A program made the position numbers and the translations under genes. Under the pieces are notes generated by a model. The model saw only the letters and a list, made by a program, of their open reading frames with translations. It had not been told where the DNA came from and made no database searches. DNA of 10,316 bases from an uncultured bacterium. GTDB lineage: Bacteria > Krumholzibacteriota > Krumholzibacteriia > Krumholzibacteriales > Krumholzibacteriaceae. Below, piece after piece: positions 1,293-10,316 of this stretch (within the stretch, counting starts at the first letter, position 1; every line of letters begins with the position of its first letter). The stretch lies in the NCBI GenBank assembly GCA_965371515.1, contig CBDUYR010000075.1, forward strand, positions 1 through 10,316, written 5' to 3'.

Positions 1293-2504
1293 ATGGAAAA
1301 TAACGACAAAAGCGCCCTTCGCCAGCTGTGGGACACATTCTTCAGCAAGAGCTGGCCGTTGTGGGTAGGCGGGATCCTGCTTGCCTTTCTCAATGTTCTT
1401 CTATTTCTGATCAGATCCCCCTGGGGTGGAAGCGGAACATATATGAGCTGGGGGGAGAACCTGTACCAGAAACTCGGATTAATCGGACTCCACGATATCA
1501 CACCAGTGATCCTTCATCCCTACGGACTACTCGGTACGTTAACGCTTCTCGGCGCCTTCGCCGGGGCTCTGATGGGACGCGATTTCGCGGTCAGGGTTCC
1601 CCCTGTGGGCGAGATGGTCAAGGGATTCATCGGCGGAGCGCTCATGGCACTGGGAGCGACGCTCGGCATCGGCTGTACGATCGGCGGATTCCTCAGCGGT
1701 TGGGCGGCCCTTTCCGGCGGCGCGATACTGCTGTCCGTAGGATTCCTGATCGGGACATATGTCGCACTGAAATATCTCTTCTGGGAGATGGAAAAATTTC
1801 CGCAGTTCAGTATGGGGAAGAGCTTCACATGGTTCGCGGCAAAGGGCTCTTCGGGTGTCTGGCAGCCGATTCTCGGTGTCATACTGACCCTGGTCATACT
1901 GATCGGTTTTTCTCTCCGATTCAGTGCCGATAACGTTTTCGCAATGTTCGCAGTAGTTGGCCTGGTTATCGGGATAATCCTTCAGAGGTCGCGTTTCTGC
2001 ATAGTCCGAGCTTTCCGTGAGCCGTTTATGACCGGTGAATCGGAAGCGCCTGTCGCCGTGATGGCTGCGCTCGCCGTAGGCATCATCGGTTTCACAGTGA
2101 TCAAATACATGGGAGTGGGCACCTCGACCCCGGGTGCGGCGAGGGCGCTTGCCATGACATGGGTATATCCCCATTTCTGGCTCAGAGCGCTTATCGGCGG
2201 CACGATCTTCGGGTTGGGAATGACGGTTGCCGGCGGGTGCGCCGTGGGAACGATCTGGAGGGCCGGCGAGGGACATGTCAAGCTCTGGTTCGCCGCTCTC
2301 GGGTTCCTGCTCACCTCCCCGATATCGAAGAAATTCATCGTACCGGCATTTTCAGAGATGCTGCCCGAATGGGCTAAGCAGAAGCTCTTCCTTCCCGACC
2401 ACCTGGGATACTGGGGCGCGCTGCTCGTCTTCTTCGTGCTGCTCGTGGCCTGGTACGCATTCGTCAAGTGGAACGAAAAGACCGGCAAATTCTCTGCCAT
2501 TTAG
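1293..2504 (+). CDS. yedE: YeeE/YedE-family sulfur (or selenium) compound inner-membrane transporter, YedE-type domain order
   Basis: 403-aa polytopic protein with three family Cys motifs: GIGCTIGG (C128), QRSRFC (C236), AGGCAVG..WRAGEG (C316); RBS AAGGAG upstream; adjacent to tusA. Confidence 0.9.
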   Translation: MENNDKSALRQLWDTFFSKSWPLWVGGILLAFLNVLLFLIRSPWGGSGTYMSWGENLYQKLGLIGLHDITPVILHPYGLLGTLTLLGAFAGALMGRDFAVRVPPVGEMVKGFIGGALMALGATLGIGCTIGGFLSGWAALSGGAILLSVGFLIGTYVALKYLFWEMEKFPQFSMGKSFTWFAAKGSSGVWQPILGVILTLVILIGFSLRFSADNVFAMFAVVGLVIGIILQRSRFCIVRAFREPFMTGESEAPVAVMAALAVGIIGFTVIKYMGVGTSTPGAARALAMTWVYPHFWLRALIGGTIFGLGMTVAGGCAVGTIWRAGEGHVKLWFAALGFLLTSPISKKFIVPAFSEMLPEWAKQKLFLPDHLGYWGALLVFFVLLVAWYAFVKWNEKTGKFSAI

Positions 2505-2519
2505 TGAGGAGTGTGTGAG

Positions 2520-3032
2520 ATGAAGCTGTTTACGCTGTTTACGATCGCCGCCCTCGCCATCGTCTTCTCCGGATGCGGAGGAGCAGGTATCGAAGGCAGG
2601 GGACCGAAGACTTACGAGAACGCCGGGCAGATCGTCTCGGAGGCGAAGGCCGGCGTTGACCGGATCGAGATAGACGCGTTCAAGGTGAAGATGGAAAGCG
2701 ACGATATGTTCGTCGTCATCGATGTCCGTGAGCCTGACGATTACTACGAGGACAGCATCCCGGGGTCGATCAACATCCCGCGCGGAATCCTCGAGTTCAA
2801 GATCGCCGACGAGAAGTACTGGGACAGCGAAGGGCTCTTTGCTCCCGGGAGGGATGAGGAGATCATTGTATATGGCCATAAGGTCGACCGAGGCGTTCTC
2901 GCGGCTGAGACTCTCGTGAAACTCGGCTATAAAAATGTGAAGCATCTCTACGGAGGGTGGATCGTGTGGACGGAGGGCCCTGAGGCTCTCGACGTAGAAG
3001 AGGTCGTTGAGGAAGGCGGATGCGGGGGTTAA
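2520..3032 (+). CDS. Rhodanese-domain lipoprotein lacking the active-loop Cys, with C-terminal GGCGG
   Basis: Start ATG 2520 after GAGGAG. Lipobox FSGC, rhodanese motifs IDVREPDDY..SIPGSINIPRGILE and LGYKNVKHLYGGW, active loop VYGHKVDRG, and C-terminus EEVVEEGGCGG*. Confidence 0.85.
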   Translation: MKLFTLFTIAALAIVFSGCGGAGIEGRGPKTYENAGQIVSEAKAGVDRIEIDAFKVKMESDDMFVVIDVREPDDYYEDSIPGSINIPRGILEFKIADEKYWDSEGLFAPGRDEEIIVYGHKVDRGVLAAETLVKLGYKNVKHLYGGWIVWTEGPEALDVEEVVEEGGCGG

Positions 3033-3206
3033 TTCGCATAGATAAGAAAAGGCATGTTTAATCAGTTGTAAGTAATTGTCCTAAAAGGAGGTAGAGCAAC
3101 TTCCATACGGGATTCAGGCCTCCCGGCGGTGGGGATGCAGGAGACACCCTGCCGGCGAACAGACCTGGTGCGTTGATTTGAATAAAATGTATTTCTGGAG
3201 GATAAG

Positions 3207-4175
3207 ATGAGTTCAAAGTACAGGTATATTCTGGTCCTGCTGGCCATAGCCGCGCTGTTTATCTCCGGCTGCAGCGAGGATTACACCTCTCCCGAGGATG
3301 GAACAAAGTCGGAGACATTGAGGAACTACCTTGTCGCCAACGACATGGACCTTCCCGATATGATCACCGACTGGCTCATTGGCGCCGACGTGGTGCACGG
3401 CAACGAGTCGACATATTATATAATCGATATCCGCGATGAGGGTGTTTACAACACGGGGCATGTACCCGGCGCCGTTAACACTACACTGGGCAACATTCTT
3501 GTCGAGGCGACCAATGCGGACGGCAAGCCGATCGTTGTTGTCTGCCTCACCGGTCAGGTCGCCGGCCACGCCGTGATAGCCCTCCGCCTAAGCGGATATT
3601 CCGACGCCATGGTGATGAAGTTCGGTATGAGCTCCTGGCACAGCGATTTCGACAGCTGGACAGCTAACACTGGTAACATCGCTTCCAGTCTTGAAAGCTG
3701 GATCGATCCTCCCGGCAATATCGCTGCCAGCACCGAGCATGACTATCCGTTGCTATCCGCCAGCGCGGCCGATGGTGCCGGTATCCTCGCCGAGCGCGTA
3801 TCCGCGATGCTCGCAGGCGGATTCAAGGGCATCAGTGCCTCCGACGTCCTTGCGGCGCCGTACGTATATTTTATCAACAACTACTGGGCCGCGAGCGATG
3901 TTACCACTTACGGGAACATCACAGGCGCCAGGAGGATCAATCCGATGGGTCTCGCAGACGGCTTTATCAAGTACAACGATTCCGGCGCTACCGTGGTCAC
4001 CTACTGCTGGACCGGCCAGACATCGTCGATGATAACCGCCTACCTGACGGTTCTCGGCTACAACGCCAAGAGCCTGAAGTACGGTGCAAACGCCATGATC
4101 TACGACGACCTGACGGCGCACAACTGGACAGGATCGTTCGATTACACGTATGAAGCGATTACGGCTCTTCAGTAG
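3207..4175 (+). CDS. Tandem two-domain rhodanese lipoprotein
   Basis: Lipobox ISGC, IIDIR...GHVPGAVN, and two Cys loops VVCLTGQVA (C113) and TYCWTGQTS (C267); RBS GGAGG at 3197-3201. Confidence 0.88.
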   Translation: MSSKYRYILVLLAIAALFISGCSEDYTSPEDGTKSETLRNYLVANDMDLPDMITDWLIGADVVHGNESTYYIIDIRDEGVYNTGHVPGAVNTTLGNILVEATNADGKPIVVVCLTGQVAGHAVIALRLSGYSDAMVMKFGMSSWHSDFDSWTANTGNIASSLESWIDPPGNIAASTEHDYPLLSASAADGAGILAERVSAMLAGGFKGISASDVLAAPYVYFINNYWAASDVTTYGNITGARRINPMGLADGFIKYNDSGATVVTYCWTGQTSSMITAYLTVLGYNAKSLKYGANAMIYDDLTAHNWTGSFDYTYEAITALQ

Positions 4176-4279: not shown

Positions 4280-5320
4280 ATGAAGTTTCTTTCACTTCTC
4301 TTACTCGGAATCGCTCTTCTTATTCCCGTCTCTTCCAATGCCCAGGGGTGTATGGAAGGCGGGTCAGATGAGGGAGTGAACGTGATTGGCTTCATCCAGC
4401 CGCAGTTCGACTGGTTAGATATAAACGACTCAAATAACAGCGATGCAAGCTTTGCGTTCAACAGGGCGAGGCTGGGAGTCACCGGCAGCGTTCCCTATGA
4501 TTTCAGCTACTACTTCATGATGGAGTTCAGTCCGAGATTTGATGATGCTCCCTACATGCTCGACGGATTTATAACCTACACGAGATTCGGGGATCCGGCG
4601 AAGTTCACCTTCGGTCAGTTCAAGCAGCCGTTCAGTCTTGAACGTAACATGCCCTGTCACGCTCTTTACACGATCAACAGATCGATGGTCGTCGAGCAGC
4701 TCGCGATGGACAGGGACATGGGGTTCATGTTTTTCGGTGATTATAAAAAGAAGGTCAGCTACAACCTGGCCGTCATGAACGGAACGGGACTAGGCATGCC
4801 CGACGACAACAACGCCAAGGACTGGGTCGGAAGAGTCGTTGTGACTCCCATGACCGGTATCGATATTGGCGGAGGCTTTCGATACGGTACATCCGCACCG
4901 AGCGTAGTGGATGCAGAAGAGGATACACATACACGTGGCGGCCTTGATCTCACGGTCACATACAAAGAATTCAAATTCTTTGCCGAGTATATCTACGGCA
5001 AGGACGAGGGTTCCTATACCGAGGGTGGTGGCTGTGGGGGGCCCGGCGAGATCGTCGAGGGTTCGAAGAAACGTAACGGTATGTACGCCATGCTCATATG
5101 GTCCACCAAGTGGAATCTGGAGCCTGTGTACAAGTATGAGTTCTTCGAGGAGGACATGGATATAACGGATAACACAAGGCATGGTCATACATTCGGATTG
5201 AACTATTACCCGAACGACTGGACCAGGCTTCAGGTCAACTATCTGCGCTGCATCGAGGAATTCCGGCCTGCGCTGAGAAACGACAAGCTCCTGGTCCAGA
5301 TGCAGATCAAGATCATGTAG
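4280..5320 (+). CDS. Outer-membrane porin, OprO/OprP (phosphate-selective porin)-like
   Basis: Signal peptide (SNA|Q), F.FNRARLGV.G, GQFKQPFSLE, TINRS, GLNYY and RLQVNY beta-strand motifs, amphipathic terminal strand LLVQMQIKIM; RBS AAAGGAG. Confidence 0.85.
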   Translation: MKFLSLLLLGIALLIPVSSNAQGCMEGGSDEGVNVIGFIQPQFDWLDINDSNNSDASFAFNRARLGVTGSVPYDFSYYFMMEFSPRFDDAPYMLDGFITYTRFGDPAKFTFGQFKQPFSLERNMPCHALYTINRSMVVEQLAMDRDMGFMFFGDYKKKVSYNLAVMNGTGLGMPDDNNAKDWVGRVVVTPMTGIDIGGGFRYGTSAPSVVDAEEDTHTRGGLDLTVTYKEFKFFAEYIYGKDEGSYTEGGGCGGPGEIVEGSKKRNGMYAMLIWSTKWNLEPVYKYEFFEEDMDITDNTRHGHTFGLNYYPNDWTRLQVNYLRCIEEFRPALRNDKLLVQMQIKIM

Positions 5321-5338
5321 TTTTCTGGAGGAATGTAT

Positions 5339-6196
5339 ATGAAGAAGCACTTTATTCTTGCGGGGCTTATTATTGCGGCTCTGTTCGTGGGCCAGGTGGC
5401 CGAGGCTCAGGTAATCTCGGTAAAGGAACTTGCGGGATTGATGGATGCCGGCGATGTGATCGTCGTCTCGGCGAGAAAGACCGCAGATTACCAGAAGGTT
5501 CACCTTCCAGGCGCTGTGCATCTCTGGCATGAGGACTTCTACGTAGATGGTGACATCAAGGCCATGCTGAAGAGTCCCGATGAGATCGCGAAGATCCTCG
5601 GCGAGAAGGGGATCTGCGGCGAGAAGGCGATAGTGGTATACGACAACGGCAAGAACACATTCGCCGGCAGGATCTACTGGATCCTCAAGTACATGGGCTG
5701 CAGTGATGTCCGTATCCTCGACGGCCATATGAAGATGTGGCGCAAGGGCCGCAAGCCCGTGACCAAGGATCCGGTCGAGATCACCGCCGTCGAGTTCAAG
5801 GGAACGGTCAACACGGCCGCGATAACCACGATGGATCAGGTGATAGCAAAGAAGGGTGATCCAGGGACCGTTCTCGTCGACAACAGGGACAAGGAAGAGT
5901 TCGACGGCGAGAAGGGGATGATCGACCGCAAGGGGCACATCCCCTCTGCGATCAATTTCAATTACAAGGAGATCGTCAACGAAGACGGAACGATCAAGGA
6001 TAAGGCCGAGATCGAGAAGCTCTTCTCCGGTGCTGGAATCACAGCGGACAAGGAAGTGATACTCTACTGCGAGACAGGGATAAGGGCCGGGATCGTCTAC
6101 ATGGCGCTTACTTCAATGCTCGAGTATCCGAAAGTCAGCGTTTATGACGGCGCCTTGTTCGAATGGGTATCAGTCGCGGACAACGCGGTGGAATAA
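5339..6196 (+). CDS. Exported two-domain thiosulfate/3-mercaptopyruvate sulfurtransferase (SseA/RhdA-like)
   Basis: Signal peptide (AEA|Q), HLPGAV, inactive N-domain VVYD, GRIYWIL, LDG, GHIPSA, catalytic loop YCETGIRA (Cys codon 6068-6070), VYDGALFEW. ATG 5339 is preferred since GGAGGA (5327-5332) abuts ATG 5333. Confidence 0.92.
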   Translation: MKKHFILAGLIIAALFVGQVAEAQVISVKELAGLMDAGDVIVVSARKTADYQKVHLPGAVHLWHEDFYVDGDIKAMLKSPDEIAKILGEKGICGEKAIVVYDNGKNTFAGRIYWILKYMGCSDVRILDGHMKMWRKGRKPVTKDPVEITAVEFKGTVNTAAITTMDQVIAKKGDPGTVLVDNRDKEEFDGEKGMIDRKGHIPSAINFNYKEIVNEDGTIKDKAEIEKLFSGAGITADKEVILYCETGIRAGIVYMALTSMLEYPKVSVYDGALFEWVSVADNAVE

Positions 6197-6224: not shown

Positions 6225-6584
6225 ATGAGCAAGACAGCCATAACGATCAACGGCGCAGACGCCAAGAGCGTCTACCCGGCGATCATAATCGCGGTATCCT
6301 CCGCGGCGACGGGCGACGAAGTCGTCCTGTTCTTCTCGCCGTTCGGCGCACCGGTGATGGTGAAGGGCGCGTTCGAGAAGATGAACGAGGAGACCGAGCA
6401 TATGCCCGACCTCATTGAGATGATAGACGGGCTCAAGATGCTCGGCGCAAAATTTCTCGTATGTGAACTGGCGTTGGATTATCACGGAATCAAGGCAGAG
6501 GATTTTATAGAGGAAGCGGAAATCGTCGGCGCGACGACATTCGTCGGCGCTGTTCAGGGCGCCGAGCTGACGCTTTCTTTCTAG
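6225..6584 (+). CDS. DsrE/DsrF-like (DsrE2/DrsE-type) sulfur relay protein
   Basis: 119 aa from ATG 6225 (RBS AAGGGG): A..GDEVVLFF...GA, GAKFLVCELAL, IVGATTF...TLSF; single conserved Cys. Confidence 0.85.
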   Translation: MSKTAITINGADAKSVYPAIIIAVSSAATGDEVVLFFSPFGAPVMVKGAFEKMNEETEHMPDLIEMIDGLKMLGAKFLVCELALDYHGIKAEDFIEEAEIVGATTFVGAVQGAELTLSF

Positions 6585-6617: not shown

Positions 6618-6842
6618 ATGGCAACCGAGCAACTGGACGCTTTGGGACTTAAGTGCCCCCAGCCGATTCTCAAGGTCGTCGCTAAAATTCCGACGATGAC
6701 AGCGGGCGATATCCTCGAGGTTCTCGCAGATTGTCCTTCATTTCCGACGGATATGAAGGCCTGGTGCGAAAAGACCGGCAAGCCCCTTCTCATGCTCACG
6801 ACCGATGGAGAAGGCAAGCACACAGCTCAAATACAGGTATAA
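6618..6842 (+). CDS. tusA: Second TusA-family sulfur carrier protein
   Basis: LDALGLKCPQP, GDILEVLADCPSF..DMKAWC; RBS AAGGAGG. Confidence 0.9.
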   Translation: MATEQLDALGLKCPQPILKVVAKIPTMTAGDILEVLADCPSFPTDMKAWCEKTGKPLLMLTTDGEGKHTAQIQV

Positions 6843-6948: not shown

Positions 6949-7383
6949 ATGACGGGCAAAGAAAAGGAATTCAGTCCGAACATCGTTGGATTTCTCTGCA
7001 ACTGGTGCACATACGCTGCGGCCGATCTTGCTGGTTCGACGAAACTCGAGATCTCACCGGCTTTCTCGGTGGTGAGGGTGATGTGCTCGAGCCGCGTCGA
7101 TCACAATCTTGTCCTGTCGACCTTCTTCGAAGGGGCGGATGGGGTACTGATCGCAGGCTGCCATCCTGGCGACTGTCATTACGGCAAGGGTAACTATTAT
7201 ACGAGGCGGCGTTACGCCCAGCTGAAGAAGGTCCTCGTGACCCTTGGTCTAGAACCGGAGAGGATCCGCCTCGTCTGGATATCGGCTGCAGAGGGAAAAA
7301 AGTATGCGGAAGTTATCAACAGTTTTACCGAGAAGATCAAGGAACTCGGGCCGAGCCCGATAAACAGCGATCAGCGTCTTTAA
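6949..7383 (+). CDS. mvhD: MvhD/FlpD-family [2Fe-2S] subunit
   Basis: IVGFLCNWCTYAAADLAG, RVMCSSRVD, GADGVLIAGCHPGDCHY.KGNY, GLEPERIRLVWISAAEG, LGPSP. Confidence 0.96.
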   Translation: MTGKEKEFSPNIVGFLCNWCTYAAADLAGSTKLEISPAFSVVRVMCSSRVDHNLVLSTFFEGADGVLIAGCHPGDCHYGKGNYYTRRRYAQLKKVLVTLGLEPERIRLVWISAAEGKKYAEVINSFTEKIKELGPSPINSDQRL

Positions 7384-7398
7384 AGAAGAGTGTGAGGG

Positions 7399-8724
7399 AT
7401 GAACAGGGATAGCGTTCTTGTAATCGGGGCGGGGCTTGCTGGGATGAAGGCCGGACTCCTTCTGGCCAACGCCGGGAAAAAGGTCTACCTCGTCGAGAAA
7501 CTTCCATTGATCGGTGGGATGGCGATAAAGGACGAGGAGAGCTTTCCCAATTTCGAATGTTCCACGTGCATGGTAGCGCCGATTCAGCAGGAGGTGCTGC
7601 AGCACCCTGACATCGAGACGATGACTCTGTCGACAGTCGAAAAGGTAGTGGGGGTCGTCGGCGATTTCAAGGTCACGATCATGAAGGCCGCTCGTTACGT
7701 AAGCATGACAGACTGCATCGGGTGTGGGATGTGTTACGAGCCGTGCCCCGTGTCGATCAGCAACGAGTGGGAAGAAGATCTGGGGGAGATGAAGGCGATA
7801 TACGTTCCCACGGCGGGTTCGCTTCCTAACGTACCGACCATAGACCCGCAGCATTGCATCAAGCTCAACGGAAGCGAGGAGTGCAATGCGTGCGCGGAGG
7901 CCTGCATGTTCGGTGCGATCAAGCTCGACGACAACGATGAAAAAATCGATGTCGAGGTCGCAGCGATAGTAGTTGCTACAGGCGCGGATATATACGACGT
8001 GTCGGGTCTCGAAGCTCTTGGATACGGTTCCTGCCCCGGGGTGTTTACGCCCCTCGAGTTCGAGAGGCTCTTTGCCTCCAACGGTCCGACGTCGGGTGAA
8101 CTGACGATCAGGGATACGGGAATCACACCGAGTAAGATAGCCATAATACATTGCGTTGGCAGGAAAGAGCAGGGTTACTGTTCTAGCGTCTGCTGCATGT
8201 ATTCGCTGAAGTTTGCTCACTTCCTCAAACAGAAACTTCCAGAAGCTCTTGTCAGAAATATCCACTCAGACATATGTGTGCATGACAAGACGTACCAGAA
8301 GTTCTTCGACGGAGTCAGGGGCACGGACACCGAGATGCTCTACTGCTCCTCAATAGAGAATATTTCCGTCTCAGCCAATGGTTCAGGGCTGAAGGTGAAG
8401 TACCCTGATGGGAAAGGGGACGAGCAGACCGTGGATGCCGACATGGTCATCCTGGCGGCGGCGATGGTTCCCGAAAAAGGATTGTCCGGTCTGGCCGAGC
8501 ACCTTGGAATAGAGCTTGATGGAAATGGATTTGTAAGGTCCCTCGAAGAGAATATCGGGTCGATCGAGACAACGATAGAAGGCATATTCATCGCAGGTTC
8601 GGTAGAGGGGCCAAAGGACATACAGACATCTGTGATACAGGCCGAGGCTGCGGCCGGAAAGGTCATGGCATGTCTCGATGCCATGCCGGAGGCGGAGATG
8701 GTCGAGTCAGGGACAGGTGAATAG
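7399..8724 (+). CDS. hdrA: HdrA-like FAD/Fe-S protein, short form (core plus inserted ferredoxin; no N-terminal domain, no C-terminal ferredoxin)
   Basis: VIGAGLAG FAD motif at the very N-terminus, FPNFECSTC, CIGCGMCYEPCP and CIKL..ECNACAEAC, LEFERL, HCVGR..YCSSVCCMYSLK, GPKDIQTSV.QA.AAA. Confidence 0.92.
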   Translation: MNRDSVLVIGAGLAGMKAGLLLANAGKKVYLVEKLPLIGGMAIKDEESFPNFECSTCMVAPIQQEVLQHPDIETMTLSTVEKVVGVVGDFKVTIMKAARYVSMTDCIGCGMCYEPCPVSISNEWEEDLGEMKAIYVPTAGSLPNVPTIDPQHCIKLNGSEECNACAEACMFGAIKLDDNDEKIDVEVAAIVVATGADIYDVSGLEALGYGSCPGVFTPLEFERLFASNGPTSGELTIRDTGITPSKIAIIHCVGRKEQGYCSSVCCMYSLKFAHFLKQKLPEALVRNIHSDICVHDKTYQKFFDGVRGTDTEMLYCSSIENISVSANGSGLKVKYPDGKGDEQTVDADMVILAAAMVPEKGLSGLAEHLGIELDGNGFVRSLEENIGSIETTIEGIFIAGSVEGPKDIQTSVIQAEAAAGKVMACLDAMPEAEMVESGTGE

Positions 8725-10316
8725 ATGAAAGCTAAAGTCGGCATATATATCTGCGAGTGCGGGCCCAACATCTCCGAGAGAGTAGACATCCCGAAGATCA
8801 GCGAGGAACTCCTCTCATCTGGTCGGTACGACGATGTAGAGCTGATAGTGAAGAATTACGGCCTGCTCTGCTCGGGTGACGGCAAGACATTCCTCGAGGA
8901 AGAGATAAAGGAGAACGGCTTCACCCACCTCGTGATAGCCGCCTGTTCTCCTAGAGATCACAACAAGACCTTCATCAATGTCTGCAAGCAGACCGATCTG
9001 AACCCTTATCTATATAAGCTCGTCAATATACGCGAGCACTGTGCCTGGATCATCCCGGACAAGGAGGAGGCATCCAGAAAGGCCATCCAGTACATACACG
9101 GTGGCATAAAGAGGGTGCTTTACCAGTCACAGCTTCTGGAAAAGCAGATCGATATCACGCCGGACGTGCTCGTGCTCGGCGGCGGGATCGCCGGGATGGA
9201 GGCGGCTCTCTCCCTGGCGGGGGAGCAGAGAAGGGTCTACCTGGTGGAGAGATCCGAGGAGTTGGGAGGCGTTTCCGCCGGTTTCAGCAGGTTGCTTCCG
9301 AGGCAGGGAGGAGATACGGGGAAGATCCGCTCTCGTCGCGAAGAAGTTGAAAAGAACGAGAACATAAGGGTATTCAGGAACTCGGAGCTGACCAGGGTCG
9401 TCGGATTCCTCGGCAACTACGAGGTTGTTGTAGAGTCACGCAGCGAAGGGAACCCGGTAGATCTGGTGGTCGGGGCGATAATTGTCGCCACGGGCTTCAG
9501 GCTCGCCAAGCTGGGAGAGATCGCGGGTTTCGATTATTCCGACGACGACGAGGTATACACCTCACTCGAGATCGAGAGGATGGTCGCGAACGGCGACGGG
9601 GTGAGAATGAGGAACGGGGAAGAGCCGAAATCGATAGCGCTCGTTCACTGTGCCGGTCGCAAAGAGAAGGGTTACTGCTCACAGATATGCTGCAATTACA
9701 TGATGAAGATAGCCAGCTATATAAAGGATCAGTCGGCGGACATAGATGTAGCGGAGTATTTTAAGGGCCTCTGTCTTCCACACAAGGAGGACCAGAAGTT
9801 CCAGGAGAGCGTTGCTCAGACTGGAGTCGATTTCAGGAGATCTGAGTCGATCGGCATCATGGGAACGACGGTCGTGTCGGTGGGGATGGATAGTGAAGAG
9901 TCTAAGCAGAAGTTCGACATGGTTATAGTCGCTCCGGCAATGGAGCCGGCAGGGGGGACCGAGGCTCTTGCAGAGCTTCTCGAACTTCCCCTCCACGAAA
10001 CAGGTTTCTTCGAGGAAGCCCACCAGTCGATAAATCCGACGGGGACTACTACTGATGGAATGTTCGTGATAGGCGCGGCGCAGGGTCCGAGAGGGATCAG
10101 CTCATCGATGCTCTTTGCCCAGGCGGCGGCAGGCGAGATTGCCACTCAACTCATCCCTGGACAGAAGATCACTCCAGAGGTAAAGGTTTCCGAGATCCTC
10201 GAGGCTTACTGCACAGGGTGCATGACATGTCTCGAGGTCTGCGCTTACGGAGCTATTTATTTCGATGATGACAAGGCGATATCAGTGGTCAACGAGGCCA
10301 TATGCCGGGGATGCGG
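8725..10316 (+). CDS. hdrA: Second HdrA-like FAD/Fe-S protein (N-terminal domain, core and C-terminal ferredoxin), 3'-truncated by the window
   Basis: Manually translated open frame of 530 codons from ATG 8725: MKAKVGIYICECGPNI, LLCS, AACSPRDH, LNPYL..VNIREHCAW, VLGGGIAG, LEIERM, HCAGR..YCSQICCNYMMK, GPRGI, CTGCMTCLEVCAY, ICRGC. Missing from the ORF track because there is no stop in the window. Confidence 0.93.
   Translation, partial: MKAKVGIYICECGPNISERVDIPKISEELLSSGRYDDVELIVKNYGLLCSGDGKTFLEEEIKENGFTHLVIAACSPRDHNKTFINVCKQTDLNPYLYKLVNIREHCAWIIPDKEEASRKAIQYIHGGIKRVLYQSQLLEKQIDITPDVLVLGGGIAGMEAALSLAGEQRRVYLVERSEELGGVSAGFSRLLPRQGGDTGKIRSRREEVEKNENIRVFRNSELTRVVGFLGNYEVVVESRSEGNPVDLVVGAIIVATGFRLAKLGEIAGFDYSDDDEVYTSLEIERMVANGDGVRMRNGEEPKSIALVHCAGRKEKGYCSQICCNYMMKIASYIKDQSADIDVAEYFKGLCLPHKEDQKFQESVAQTGVDFRRSESIGIMGTTVVSVGMDSEESKQKFDMVIVAPAMEPAGGTEALAELLELPLHETGFFEEAHQSINPTGTTTDGMFVIGAAQGPRGISSSMLFAQAAAGEIATQLIPGQKITPEVKVSEILEAYCTGCMTCLEVCAYGAIYFDDDKAISVVNEAICRGC

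Follow-up and report, generated by a model that had tools for sequence, protein, structure and literature searches.

Introduction

PspE and Sud transfer sulfane sulfur in the periplasm by means of a rhodanese fold, and DsrC and TusE carry a reactive cysteine on a flexible C-terminal arm, DsrC being cytoplasmic and of a different fold. In SoxY, of the periplasmic SoxYZ carrier, the cysteine lies in a Gly-rich C-terminal motif that reads GGCGG. Here we describe a gene for a 170-residue rhodanese lipoprotein that ends in the same five residues. It occupies positions 2520 to 3032 of a 10,316-nucleotide stretch of DNA (contig CBDUYR010000075.1, forward strand; hereafter the window) from assembly GCA_965371515.1 of an uncultured bacterium of the family Krumholzibacteriaceae. 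Unlike PspE and Sud, which use a loop cysteine and have no tail, this protein lacks the loop cysteine. In SoxY, the intermediates of the pathway are attached covalently to the cysteine of the C-terminal motif (PMC5336275).

Two further systems resemble the locus as a whole. Nearest in architecture is the ExtH/ExtI pair of Geobacter sulfurreducens, likewise a rhodanese-family lipoprotein together with a Porin_O_P-type outer-membrane channel, which has been tied to the reduction and uptake of selenite and tellurite (PMC5877670). The Ext cluster includes multihaem cytochromes and a bc-type complex, and the available part of its description names no YeeE, TusA or DsrE (PMC5877670). The window's lipoprotein scores 19.3 bits against the ExtH model NF040901 (cut-off 200) and its porin 36.7 bits against ExtI (cut-off 150), which places neither in the Ext families. 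Nearest in pathway are the YeeE/YeeD (TsuA/TsuB) and YTD (YedE-TusA-DsrE) clusters, in which a YeeE-family channel is likewise accompanied by TusA-like and DsrE-like proteins. The YTD clusters have been discussed for sulfur disproportionators, and neither they nor YeeE/YeeD are described, in the available part of that paper, as having a periplasmic Cys-tipped donor or a dedicated porin (PMC13490349). The YeeE of the window is no TsuA equivalog; it scores 86-100 bits against TsuA, with 86 bits where the cut-off is 645.

The step by which sulfur crosses the outer membrane is said in the same 2026 proteomics paper to be "yet to be identified" (PMC13490349), and elsewhere the proteins of the outer membrane by which sulfur is activated or imported are likewise described as not identified (PMC10045233). 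The family reported here offers widespread candidates for this part of the pathway, namely a periplasmic carrier arm tied to YeeE and a porin with an invariant cysteine or selenocysteine (Sec) in a predicted surface loop.

The tail-bearing rhodanese lipoprotein

The gene ends in a TAA stop codon (3030-3032), and its product begins with MKLFTLFTIAALAIVFSG-C, a signal peptide ending in the lipobox FSGC (2520-2576). The predicted lipidated residue, Cys19 (2574-2576), is invariant in 70/70 aligned homologues and, judged by this lipobox, the protein is a bacterial lipoprotein. Its sole Pfam domain is PF00581 Rhodanese (residues 55-151, E 4.8e-15, 56.3 bits against a cut-off of 22.2), and both this match and the predicted fold place it among the rhodanese homology domains. 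The only other cysteine, Cys168 (TGC, 3021-3023), lies in the terminal GGCGG (residues 166-170, 3015-3029), at the tip of what is modelled as a flexible arm; the C-terminus reads EEVVEEGGCGG, followed directly by the stop codon. At residues 117-125 the active-site loop reads VYGHKVDRG where aligned relatives have YCKKGxRG. The cysteine that starts the CX4R loop of an active rhodanese is thus replaced by Gly119 (GGC, 2874-2876), and this lipoprotein falls into the inactive class of rhodanese-homology-domain proteins. An earlier note on this DNA, made from the sequence alone, had described a rhodanese lipoprotein with glycine in place of the catalytic cysteine and a terminal GGCGG, and the letters and coordinates that it gave for both sites are correct.

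When the protein was scanned against NCBIfam every match fell below its cut-off. The best was a MoeB model (51.7 bits against 449), and lower scores were obtained for LYCAU (NF041203; 32.1 against 115) and PspE (19.7 against 102), so that the protein does not belong to the LYCAU family of rhodanese-related (seleno)proteins. An AlphaFold2 (AF2) model built from 70 sequences has a mean predicted local distance difference test (pLDDT) score of 86.1 and a predicted template modelling (pTM) score of 0.73. It shows a confident rhodanese core, whose best Foldseek matches in the PDB are all rhodanese-like (6mxv, 2hhg, TSTD1 6bev and GlpE 1gmx), a segment of low confidence after the lipobox (residues 20-33, pLDDT 58-68) and a disordered tail (residues 163-170, pLDDT <50). 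Such a model is what would be expected of a globular domain that is flexibly tethered at its N-terminus and bears a flexible arm at its C-terminus.

The same note had called the arm SoxY-like. The shared GGCGG motif stands, and with it a putative carrier role, but the likeness is one of analogy only: the fold is that of a rhodanese, and no Pfam or NCBIfam SoxY model matches. The tail rhodanese further differs from SoxY in having no SoxZ partner in the genome, in being lipid-anchored, in its apparent coupling to the importer YeeE rather than to oxidising enzymes, and in that its cysteine alternates with Sec in predicted orthologues. It appears analogous to SoxY or DsrC in its working and belongs to neither family. 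The statement that no sox genes are visible nearby can be widened in part to the genome, which is estimated to be 99.6% complete and gave no match to SoxY (PF13501), SoxZ (PF08770) or DsrA, SoxAX, SoxB and SoxCD not having been searched for. Since these three matches are missing, the arm probably serves no Sox or Dsr pathway.

No other stop-to-stop frame of at least 60 residues in the genome (3.08 Mb) has a terminal GGCGG; this and the conservation of the tail across the family (see below) show that the ending is not due to chance. Two other short frames, of 86 and 87 residues (genome contigs C19 and C31), end in GGCG; one of them is Arg-rich and looks spurious. Metatranscriptome contigs from one run reach positions 2400-2590 alone, with 95-99% likeness, the tail region lying outside their coverage.

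Conservation of the tail

A homologue search yielded 148 proteins at E ≤ 1e-3. The best 120 of the 148 were taken and six fragments or chimeras (P0028, P0033, P0039, P0056, P0104 and P0115) were dropped, leaving 114 that could be classed by active site and tail. A Cys tail is present in 87/114, and in these the catalytic position is occupied by Cys (54/114), Gly (27/114), Ser (5/114) or Thr (1/114). The remaining proteins all have a catalytic Cys; nine of the 114 end in "GG" and 18/114 have no tail. Conservation of the GGCG(G) ending, on which the earlier proposal depended, is therefore found among homologues: the 87 Cys tails end in GGCGG (61), GGCG (8), GGC (8), SGCGG (4), SGCG (3) or other sequences (3).

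The length of the arm is conserved as well. The last strand has a conserved GG, and the cysteine follows it at a distance of 19-33 residues (median 21), which is 20-23 residues in 76 of the 87 proteins. The composition of the linker varies by clade; the acidic linker remarked on earlier is present in the window's protein but is a trait of its clade, others being rich in Pro, Lys and Asn. Our literature searches, supplements aside, turned up no description of such a Cys-tipped rhodanese arm.

Loss of the catalytic cysteine

A single base separates GGC from TGC at 2874, and the authenticity of Gly119 was examined from three sides. Two runs of one study gave contigs that cover 2502-3300 (word depth 31.6 and 46.3) and show no difference at 2874, a comparison that was made on assembled contigs rather than raw reads. 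A variant contig from a separate study carries 17 differences, including 2873 T>C (TAT>TAC) and 2876 C>T (GGC>GGT), both synonymous; eleven of the differences lie inside the gene, nine of them synonymous and two conservative (A53V and R111K). Finally, other assemblies contain 27 homologues in which this position is likewise Gly, within a conserved loop, YGHK[IV][DE]RG. Taken together, the agreement of the contigs, the synonymous GGT variant and the 27 Gly homologues exclude a sequencing error at 2874, and the missing cysteine that the earlier note had reported is genuine.

A maximum-likelihood tree was built quickly for the 114 proteins, with a short search and with support from the Shimodaira-Hasegawa-like approximate likelihood ratio test (SH-aLRT) only. 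It shows at least three losses of the catalytic Cys: in the Gly clade of 27, which is nested among the Cys-bearing P0026 and P0029; in P0030 and P0031 (Ser); and in P0059, P0066, P0071 and P0073 (Ser/Thr). Three is the minimum number on this tree, with no statistic attached, and related proteins are not independent observations. All 33 proteins without a catalytic Cys keep the tail Cys, and the catalytic Cys is present in 18/18 tail-less relatives and in 9/9 forms whose tail codon is TGA (see below). Since no tail-less or TGA form is Cys-less and every Cys-less form keeps its tail, the tail Cys appears indispensable and the rhodanese Cys dispensable. The alignments and the tree support the view that the absence of the catalytic Cys is real and selected for. 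On the same evidence the commoner form, with both catalytic and tail Cys (54/114), is ancestral, and the Cys-less state a derived trait of clades.

TGA codons at the tail cysteine

The DNA of 80 related loci (numbered L002-L081) was obtained, and the ends of the tail rhodanese genes were read in L002-L033 (n=32). In all ten loci whose protein had been recorded as ending in "GG" (L002-L008, L012, L020 and L023), the codon in the place of the tail Cys is TGA, followed by exactly one codon, for Asp or Gly, and then by TAA or TAG. The remaining 22 of the 32 read GG-C-G-stop. A hairpin starts 12-14 nucleotides past the TGA in 10/10 of the TGA loci, where the minimum free energy (MFE) of a 45-nucleotide segment ranges from -4.4 to -15.4 (mean -9.0). 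The mean MFE in the 22 Cys loci is -1.16; the hairpin is weak or absent in 19/22 of them, and an appreciable fold is seen in L011 (-8.7), L014 (-4.0), L013 (-3.5) and L018 (-3.0) only. The stem sequences differ between groups of loci. SelB was found above its cut-off in 5/5 genomes with the TGA form, in 5/5 with the Cys form and in the genome of the window, so that its presence does not separate the two forms.

The alternation of TGA and Cys at the tail is read as a Sec/Cys pair in orthologues, whose TGA forms combine the aligned TGA, a hairpin resembling a Sec insertion sequence (SECIS) and the Sec machinery expected of a selenoprotein family; incorporation of Sec is predicted. The proteins encoded in the window itself carry Cys, not Sec. 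With only one codon between the TGA and the stop, nearly all of the putative SECIS would fall in the 3' untranslated region, and a rhodanese with penultimate Sec would thus have its SECIS beyond the stop codon. Sec/Cys pairs are the usual signature of a chemically reactive residue, and the alternation marks the tail Cys as such a residue. A reading of the tail as a sorting signal was also considered, and was rejected because the use of Sec points to chemistry at that residue.

The link to yeeE

A gene for a YeeE/YedE-family membrane transporter (1293-2504, forward strand; Pfam Sulf_transp 8.8e-48) lies directly upstream of the tail rhodanese. Neighbours were counted by a local tblastn over L002-L081, and the counts are lower bounds, as many loci end at contig ends. 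yeeE is adjacent to the rhodanese gene in 41/45 tail-bearing loci, compared to 1/35 tail-less loci (L066). The encoded YeeE proteins are 54-76% identical to that of the window across phyla, and their genes end a few bases before the rhodanese start.

The tail is also accompanied, in 31/45 tail-bearing loci, by a second rhodanese lipoprotein and, in 22/45, by a porin. The latter is no obligatory partner, because some Cloacimonadota loci with long downstream flanks (e.g. L027 and L032) are without it. The link to yeeE and the Gly-flanked Cys/Sec of the porin (described below) were absent from the earlier reading, and they are the decisive context for the interpretation of the tail.

The position of YeeE Cys316 (2238-2240, MTVAGG-C-AVGT) is itself occupied by TGA in five of the 41 loci (L015, L022, L024, L025 and L033), and those of Cys128 and Cys236 are never TGA in the related loci. 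A YeeE-family selenoprotein with the motif GUxSG has already been catalogued (PMC13188914).

The porin

The outer-membrane component is an OprP/OprO-type porin of 16 strands (4280-5320, forward strand; Pfam Porin_O_P) whose invariant cysteines include Cys24 (4349-4351), Cys126 (4655-4657) and Cys252 (5033-5035). Each of these, in the contexts QG-C-ME, P-C-H/Q and, for Cys252, a GGG-C-G loop that is itself invariant (GSYTEGGG-C252-GGPGEIVEGS in the window), is kept in 120/120 sequences (the best 120 of 746 homologues). Some of the porin homologues are named from isolates of Draconibacterium and Prolixibacteraceae. In the porins of L004, L008 and L023, and in two porins of L010, an in-frame TGA stands at the position of Cys252, and homology runs on for about 90 codons. 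Counted over all loci, TGA occupies the aligned position in 15/21 and Cys in 6/21. Cys24 and Cys126 never alternate with TGA. Locus L010 carries two tandem porin paralogues (10508-12727), each with the loop TGA; the lipoprotein tail there has Cys.

The porin was modelled with AF2 (mean pLDDT 86.5, pTM 0.81); the model has 16 strands, and its best PDB matches are OprP (2o4v) and OprO (4rjw). Its topology was deduced from the secondary-structure string by counting strands from a periplasmic N-terminus in the manner of classical porins. This count predicts that Cys252 faces the cell surface, where it would sit at the tip of L6, a long extracellular loop that is disordered at this point (residues 250-254, pLDDT <50). 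Cys126 would lie in the long helix-bearing loop L3, and Cys24 on the periplasmic side, in an N-terminal segment modelled as disordered. Cys24 is the third residue past the predicted signal cleavage site, in that disordered segment, and together with Cys126 could form a structural disulfide or serve as a relay site.

A hairpin follows the porin TGA by 10-12 nucleotides in four of five cases, but Cys-type controls fold equally well, and the folding z-scores at the porin TGA (-1.42 to +0.45) do not separate the TGA and Cys groups. The case for Sec in the porin is made by the alignment of the TGA with an invariant Cys and by the in-frame homology that continues for some 90 codons.

Among the transporter, periplasmic and outer-membrane proteins of the module, TGA takes the place of Cys at three positions only, namely the tail, YeeE Cys316 and porin Cys252; where the other two rhodaneses and the TusA proteins have their catalytic Cys, no TGA was found in the related loci. 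The three positions mark likely reactive residues and so provide precise targets for mutagenesis. A recent review lists the rhodanese Sec motifs UxxS, UxxG, CxU and UxxxxU, none of which corresponds to a tail of the form GG-U-(G/D) at the C-terminus. The terms porin, PF07396, phosphate-selective and lipoprotein are absent from this paper, and its available part contains neither a tail rhodanese nor a Porin_O_P selenoprotein (PMC13188914). Two predicted selenoprotein types, the rhodanese with penultimate Sec in a C-terminal tail and the OprP-type porin, are thus apparently uncatalogued.

Other genes of the cluster

All genes are on the forward strand. The cluster is headed by an ArsR/SmtB-family regulator (471-779; Pfam HTH_5 4.2e-14; NCBIfam HTH_metalloreg 88.9 bits, above the cut-off of 55), which is also present in L100, L101 and L103. 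It has two cysteines, in the contexts NG-C-NV and KV-C-YE, and scores 56 against the BigR-like cut-off of 155; by its sequence it could be a persulfide sensor. A cytoplasmic TusA-family sulfur carrier (991-1224; Pfam TusA 5.1e-27) follows upstream of yeeE, in the same order as in related loci.

Downstream of the tail rhodanese lies the second lipoprotein (3207-4175; Pfam), whose two rhodanese domains keep Cys113 and Cys267. Where a locus has this protein, Cys113 is retained in 31/31 cases and Cys267 in 29/31. The porin is followed by an exported two-domain rhodanese (5333-6196; Pfam Rhodanese 5.4e-35) with an intact site (Cys246, CETGIRAG), which scores 141 bits against the NCBIfam 3-mercaptopyruvate sulfurtransferase model, below the cut-off of 250. 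Cys246 is kept in 21/22 loci, the one remaining locus having failed to align. Next come a DsrE-like protein of uncertain start (6225-6584, the listed open reading frame beginning at 6144; Pfam DrsE_2 1.2e-13, DsrE 7.9e-10) and a second TusA-family protein (6618-6842; Pfam TusA 7.2e-18).

The last part of the window (6949-10314) encodes an MvhD-like protein (6949-7383; Pfam FlpD 1.2e-51) and two HdrA-like flavo-iron-sulfur proteins (7399-8724, and 8725 to the contig end, where the gene is open at its 3' side), which score 365 and 350 bits against NCBIfam HdrA2, below the cut-off of 1100. Cys71 of MvhD (IAG-C-HPGD) is TGA in 15 of 18 related loci, a form that we take to be the known VhuD-type selenoprotein. 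In L004 gene calling splits MvhD at this site.

The order TusA, YeeE, tail rhodanese, rhodanese, porin, rhodanese recurs in L100 and L101, from the same family, and in L004, L008, L010 and L023, labelled Cloacimonadota, Delongbacteria and Armatimonadota (taxon labels of loci are given throughout as in their records). The recurring module is flanked by HdrA/MvhD, Fer4, DsrE and FrhB-like genes, and L101 continues past its MvhD/HdrA genes with Fer4, FrhB-like and second MvhD genes.

Proposed function and alternatives

In the simplest reading Cys168 is a mobile carrier that takes up sulfane sulfur as a persulfide and passes it to the YeeE encoded upstream. We lean towards this reading, because it accounts at once for the tethered export, the length-conserved Cys/Sec arm, the link to yeeE, the Cys/Sec alternation at YeeE Cys316 and the accompanying TusA, DsrE, HdrA and MvhD genes. 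In the ancestral form the arm would be loaded by the rhodanese Cys of the same protein. In the Gly clade loading would fall to the two Cys-bearing periplasmic rhodaneses encoded downstream, or to the porin, and the dead rhodanese domain may survive as a scaffold for docking, as tandem rhodaneses retain an inactive domain. In the cytoplasm, sulfur delivered by YeeE would be taken over by TusA and DsrE and then by an HdrA/MvhD-type oxidoreductase, in a pathway that would serve sulfur reduction or a disproportionation-type metabolism and not Sox oxidation.

A wider proposal, which we put forward tentatively and consider rather doubtful, is a Cys/Sec bucket-brigade leading from the cell exterior to the cytoplasm by way of the porin surface loop, the lipoprotein arm, YeeE and then TusA, DsrE and the Hdr-type reductase. 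The thiolate or selenolate of the porin loop would attack insoluble or polymeric sulfur, and the sulfur chain would move through the pore via Cys126 in L3 and Cys24 at the periplasmic N-terminus to the Cys of the arm. If this were true, the outer-membrane thiol protein long postulated to activate elemental sulfur would be this porin, and the missing periplasmic link would be the rhodanese arm.

Several points weigh against the carrier reading. The loading of Cys168 with sulfur and its contact with YeeE rest on inference, and whether the lipoprotein can reach YeeE hinges on which membrane anchors it. The disordered tail is compatible with a carrier arm and is no proof of one, the model being silent on what the arm contacts. 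The GHK[IV][DE]RG loop of the dead domain is conserved, and the carrier reading gives it no role. Four of the 45 tail-bearing loci are without yeeE (L026, L034, L043 and L044); the upstream flank is short or missing in L026 and L034, but L044 has 8 kb upstream without the gene, and L043 too is without it. As regards the Sec/Cys pair, covariation support for the tail hairpin is modest, two of the six pairs of the consensus fold showing compensatory changes, and bacterial SECIS elements are said in a 2026 review to lie within coding regions (PMC13188914). Finally, the best NCBIfam score of the window's YeeE is to selen_YedE_FdhT (114.4 bits, cut-off 350), and this affinity to a selenium-linked YedE/FdhT model keeps selenium in play as a cargo.

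This last point leads to the alternative that survives best, though we think it unlikely: that the module moves selenium. The porin would then be permeable to selenite, and the arm would bring selenium from it, as a selenotrisulfide or perselenide, to a YedE-type importer that supplies selenophosphate synthesis. Besides the YeeE score, the sole NCBIfam match of the porin is to ExtI, the exported rhodanese matches ExtH at 57.9 bits, and SelB occurs in 11/11 genomes tested. The Geobacter ExtI/ExtH pair is a precedent for selenite and tellurite, to which a study by Jahan from 2019 reportedly also belongs. All of these NCBIfam scores, however, are far below the cut-offs (350, 150 and 200), and SelD is above its cut-off in only 3/5 further module-bearing genomes, whose completeness is not established. 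Three rhodaneses and a porin would be a heavy investment for a trace element, and the TusA, DsrE, MvhD, HdrA and FrhB-type redox genes found around the module in two phyla fit a dissimilatory sulfur metabolism.

Somewhat less probable again is that the tail Cys acts as a resolving cysteine, attacking the rhodanese persulfide and releasing sulfide via a disulfide or trisulfide, the protein then being the half-site of a periplasmic thiosulfate or polysulfide reductase. The commonest form, with catalytic and tail Cys side by side (54/114), would suit such a mechanism, as would Sec, which is typical of resolving and attacking residues in redox enzymes (compare the table in PMC13188914). This mechanism leaves unexplained why the catalytic Cys was lost at least three times with the tail always kept, and why the transporter is so tightly linked, and the module has no gene for DsbD or a thioredoxin-like periplasmic reductant.

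We regard it as very improbable that the tail binds a soft metal or metalloid (As, Hg, Te or Cu) as a thiolate or selenolate ligand, in a detoxification or uptake module under ArsR control. An ArsR/SmtB metalloregulator does head the cluster, with a score above its cut-off, and several predicted Sec transporters are tied to metal or metalloid resistance (PMC13188914). ArsR-family members also sense sulfur species, although the BigR-like score here is below its cut-off; genes for arsenic, mercury or copper resistance are lacking from the module, and TusA, DsrE and Hdr are components of sulfur relay and redox.

That the terminal Gly-Gly is activated to a thiocarboxylate as in ThiS/MoaD carriers, with the rhodanese domain donating sulfur, might be suggested by the GG at the end of the protein and by its best NCBIfam matches, MoeB/MoeZ proteins with rhodanese domains, but is scarcely credible and was rejected: the Cys alone is conserved and the terminal GG is not, the endings GGC, GGCG, GCGS, GCGA, GCGE and U-D all occurring, the MoeB score reflects the rhodanese domain only, and an exported, lipidated protein would find neither ATP nor an E1-type enzyme outside the cytoplasm.

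Distribution of the module

A profile search of 1.84 billion cluster representatives (50% identity) found 50,794 rhodanese relatives at E ≤ 0.001. Among the 147 new identifiers in the best 150 of these, at least 33 have a Cys tail and one ends in GG. Fusions of YeeE with the rhodanese were not recovered: a search for longer homologues produced nine hits, all lacking a YeeE domain, and nine long or non-lipoprotein representatives with the tail showed rhodanese domains alone in a Pfam scan. Within the phylum of the window, close orthologues were found in 6/208 genomes, all of one family, and in the genus in 2/7 genomes, which makes the module an accessory one. It is found in genomes labelled Krumholzibacteriota, KSB1, Cloacimonadota, Zixibacteria and Bacteroidales that come from anoxic sediments, and because of this origin it may matter for sedimentary sulfur cycling.

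A related architecture occurs in six loci (L042, L047-L050 and L053), labelled Zixibacteria, Ignavibacteriales and Myxococcales, which encode lipoproteins of about 408 residues. These contain three tandem rhodanese repeats, each with its Cys, and end in one SSG-C-GG tail. In five of the six loci the triple-rhodanese gene directly follows a complete yeeE, and L042 shows only a fragment of yeeE at the start of the contig.

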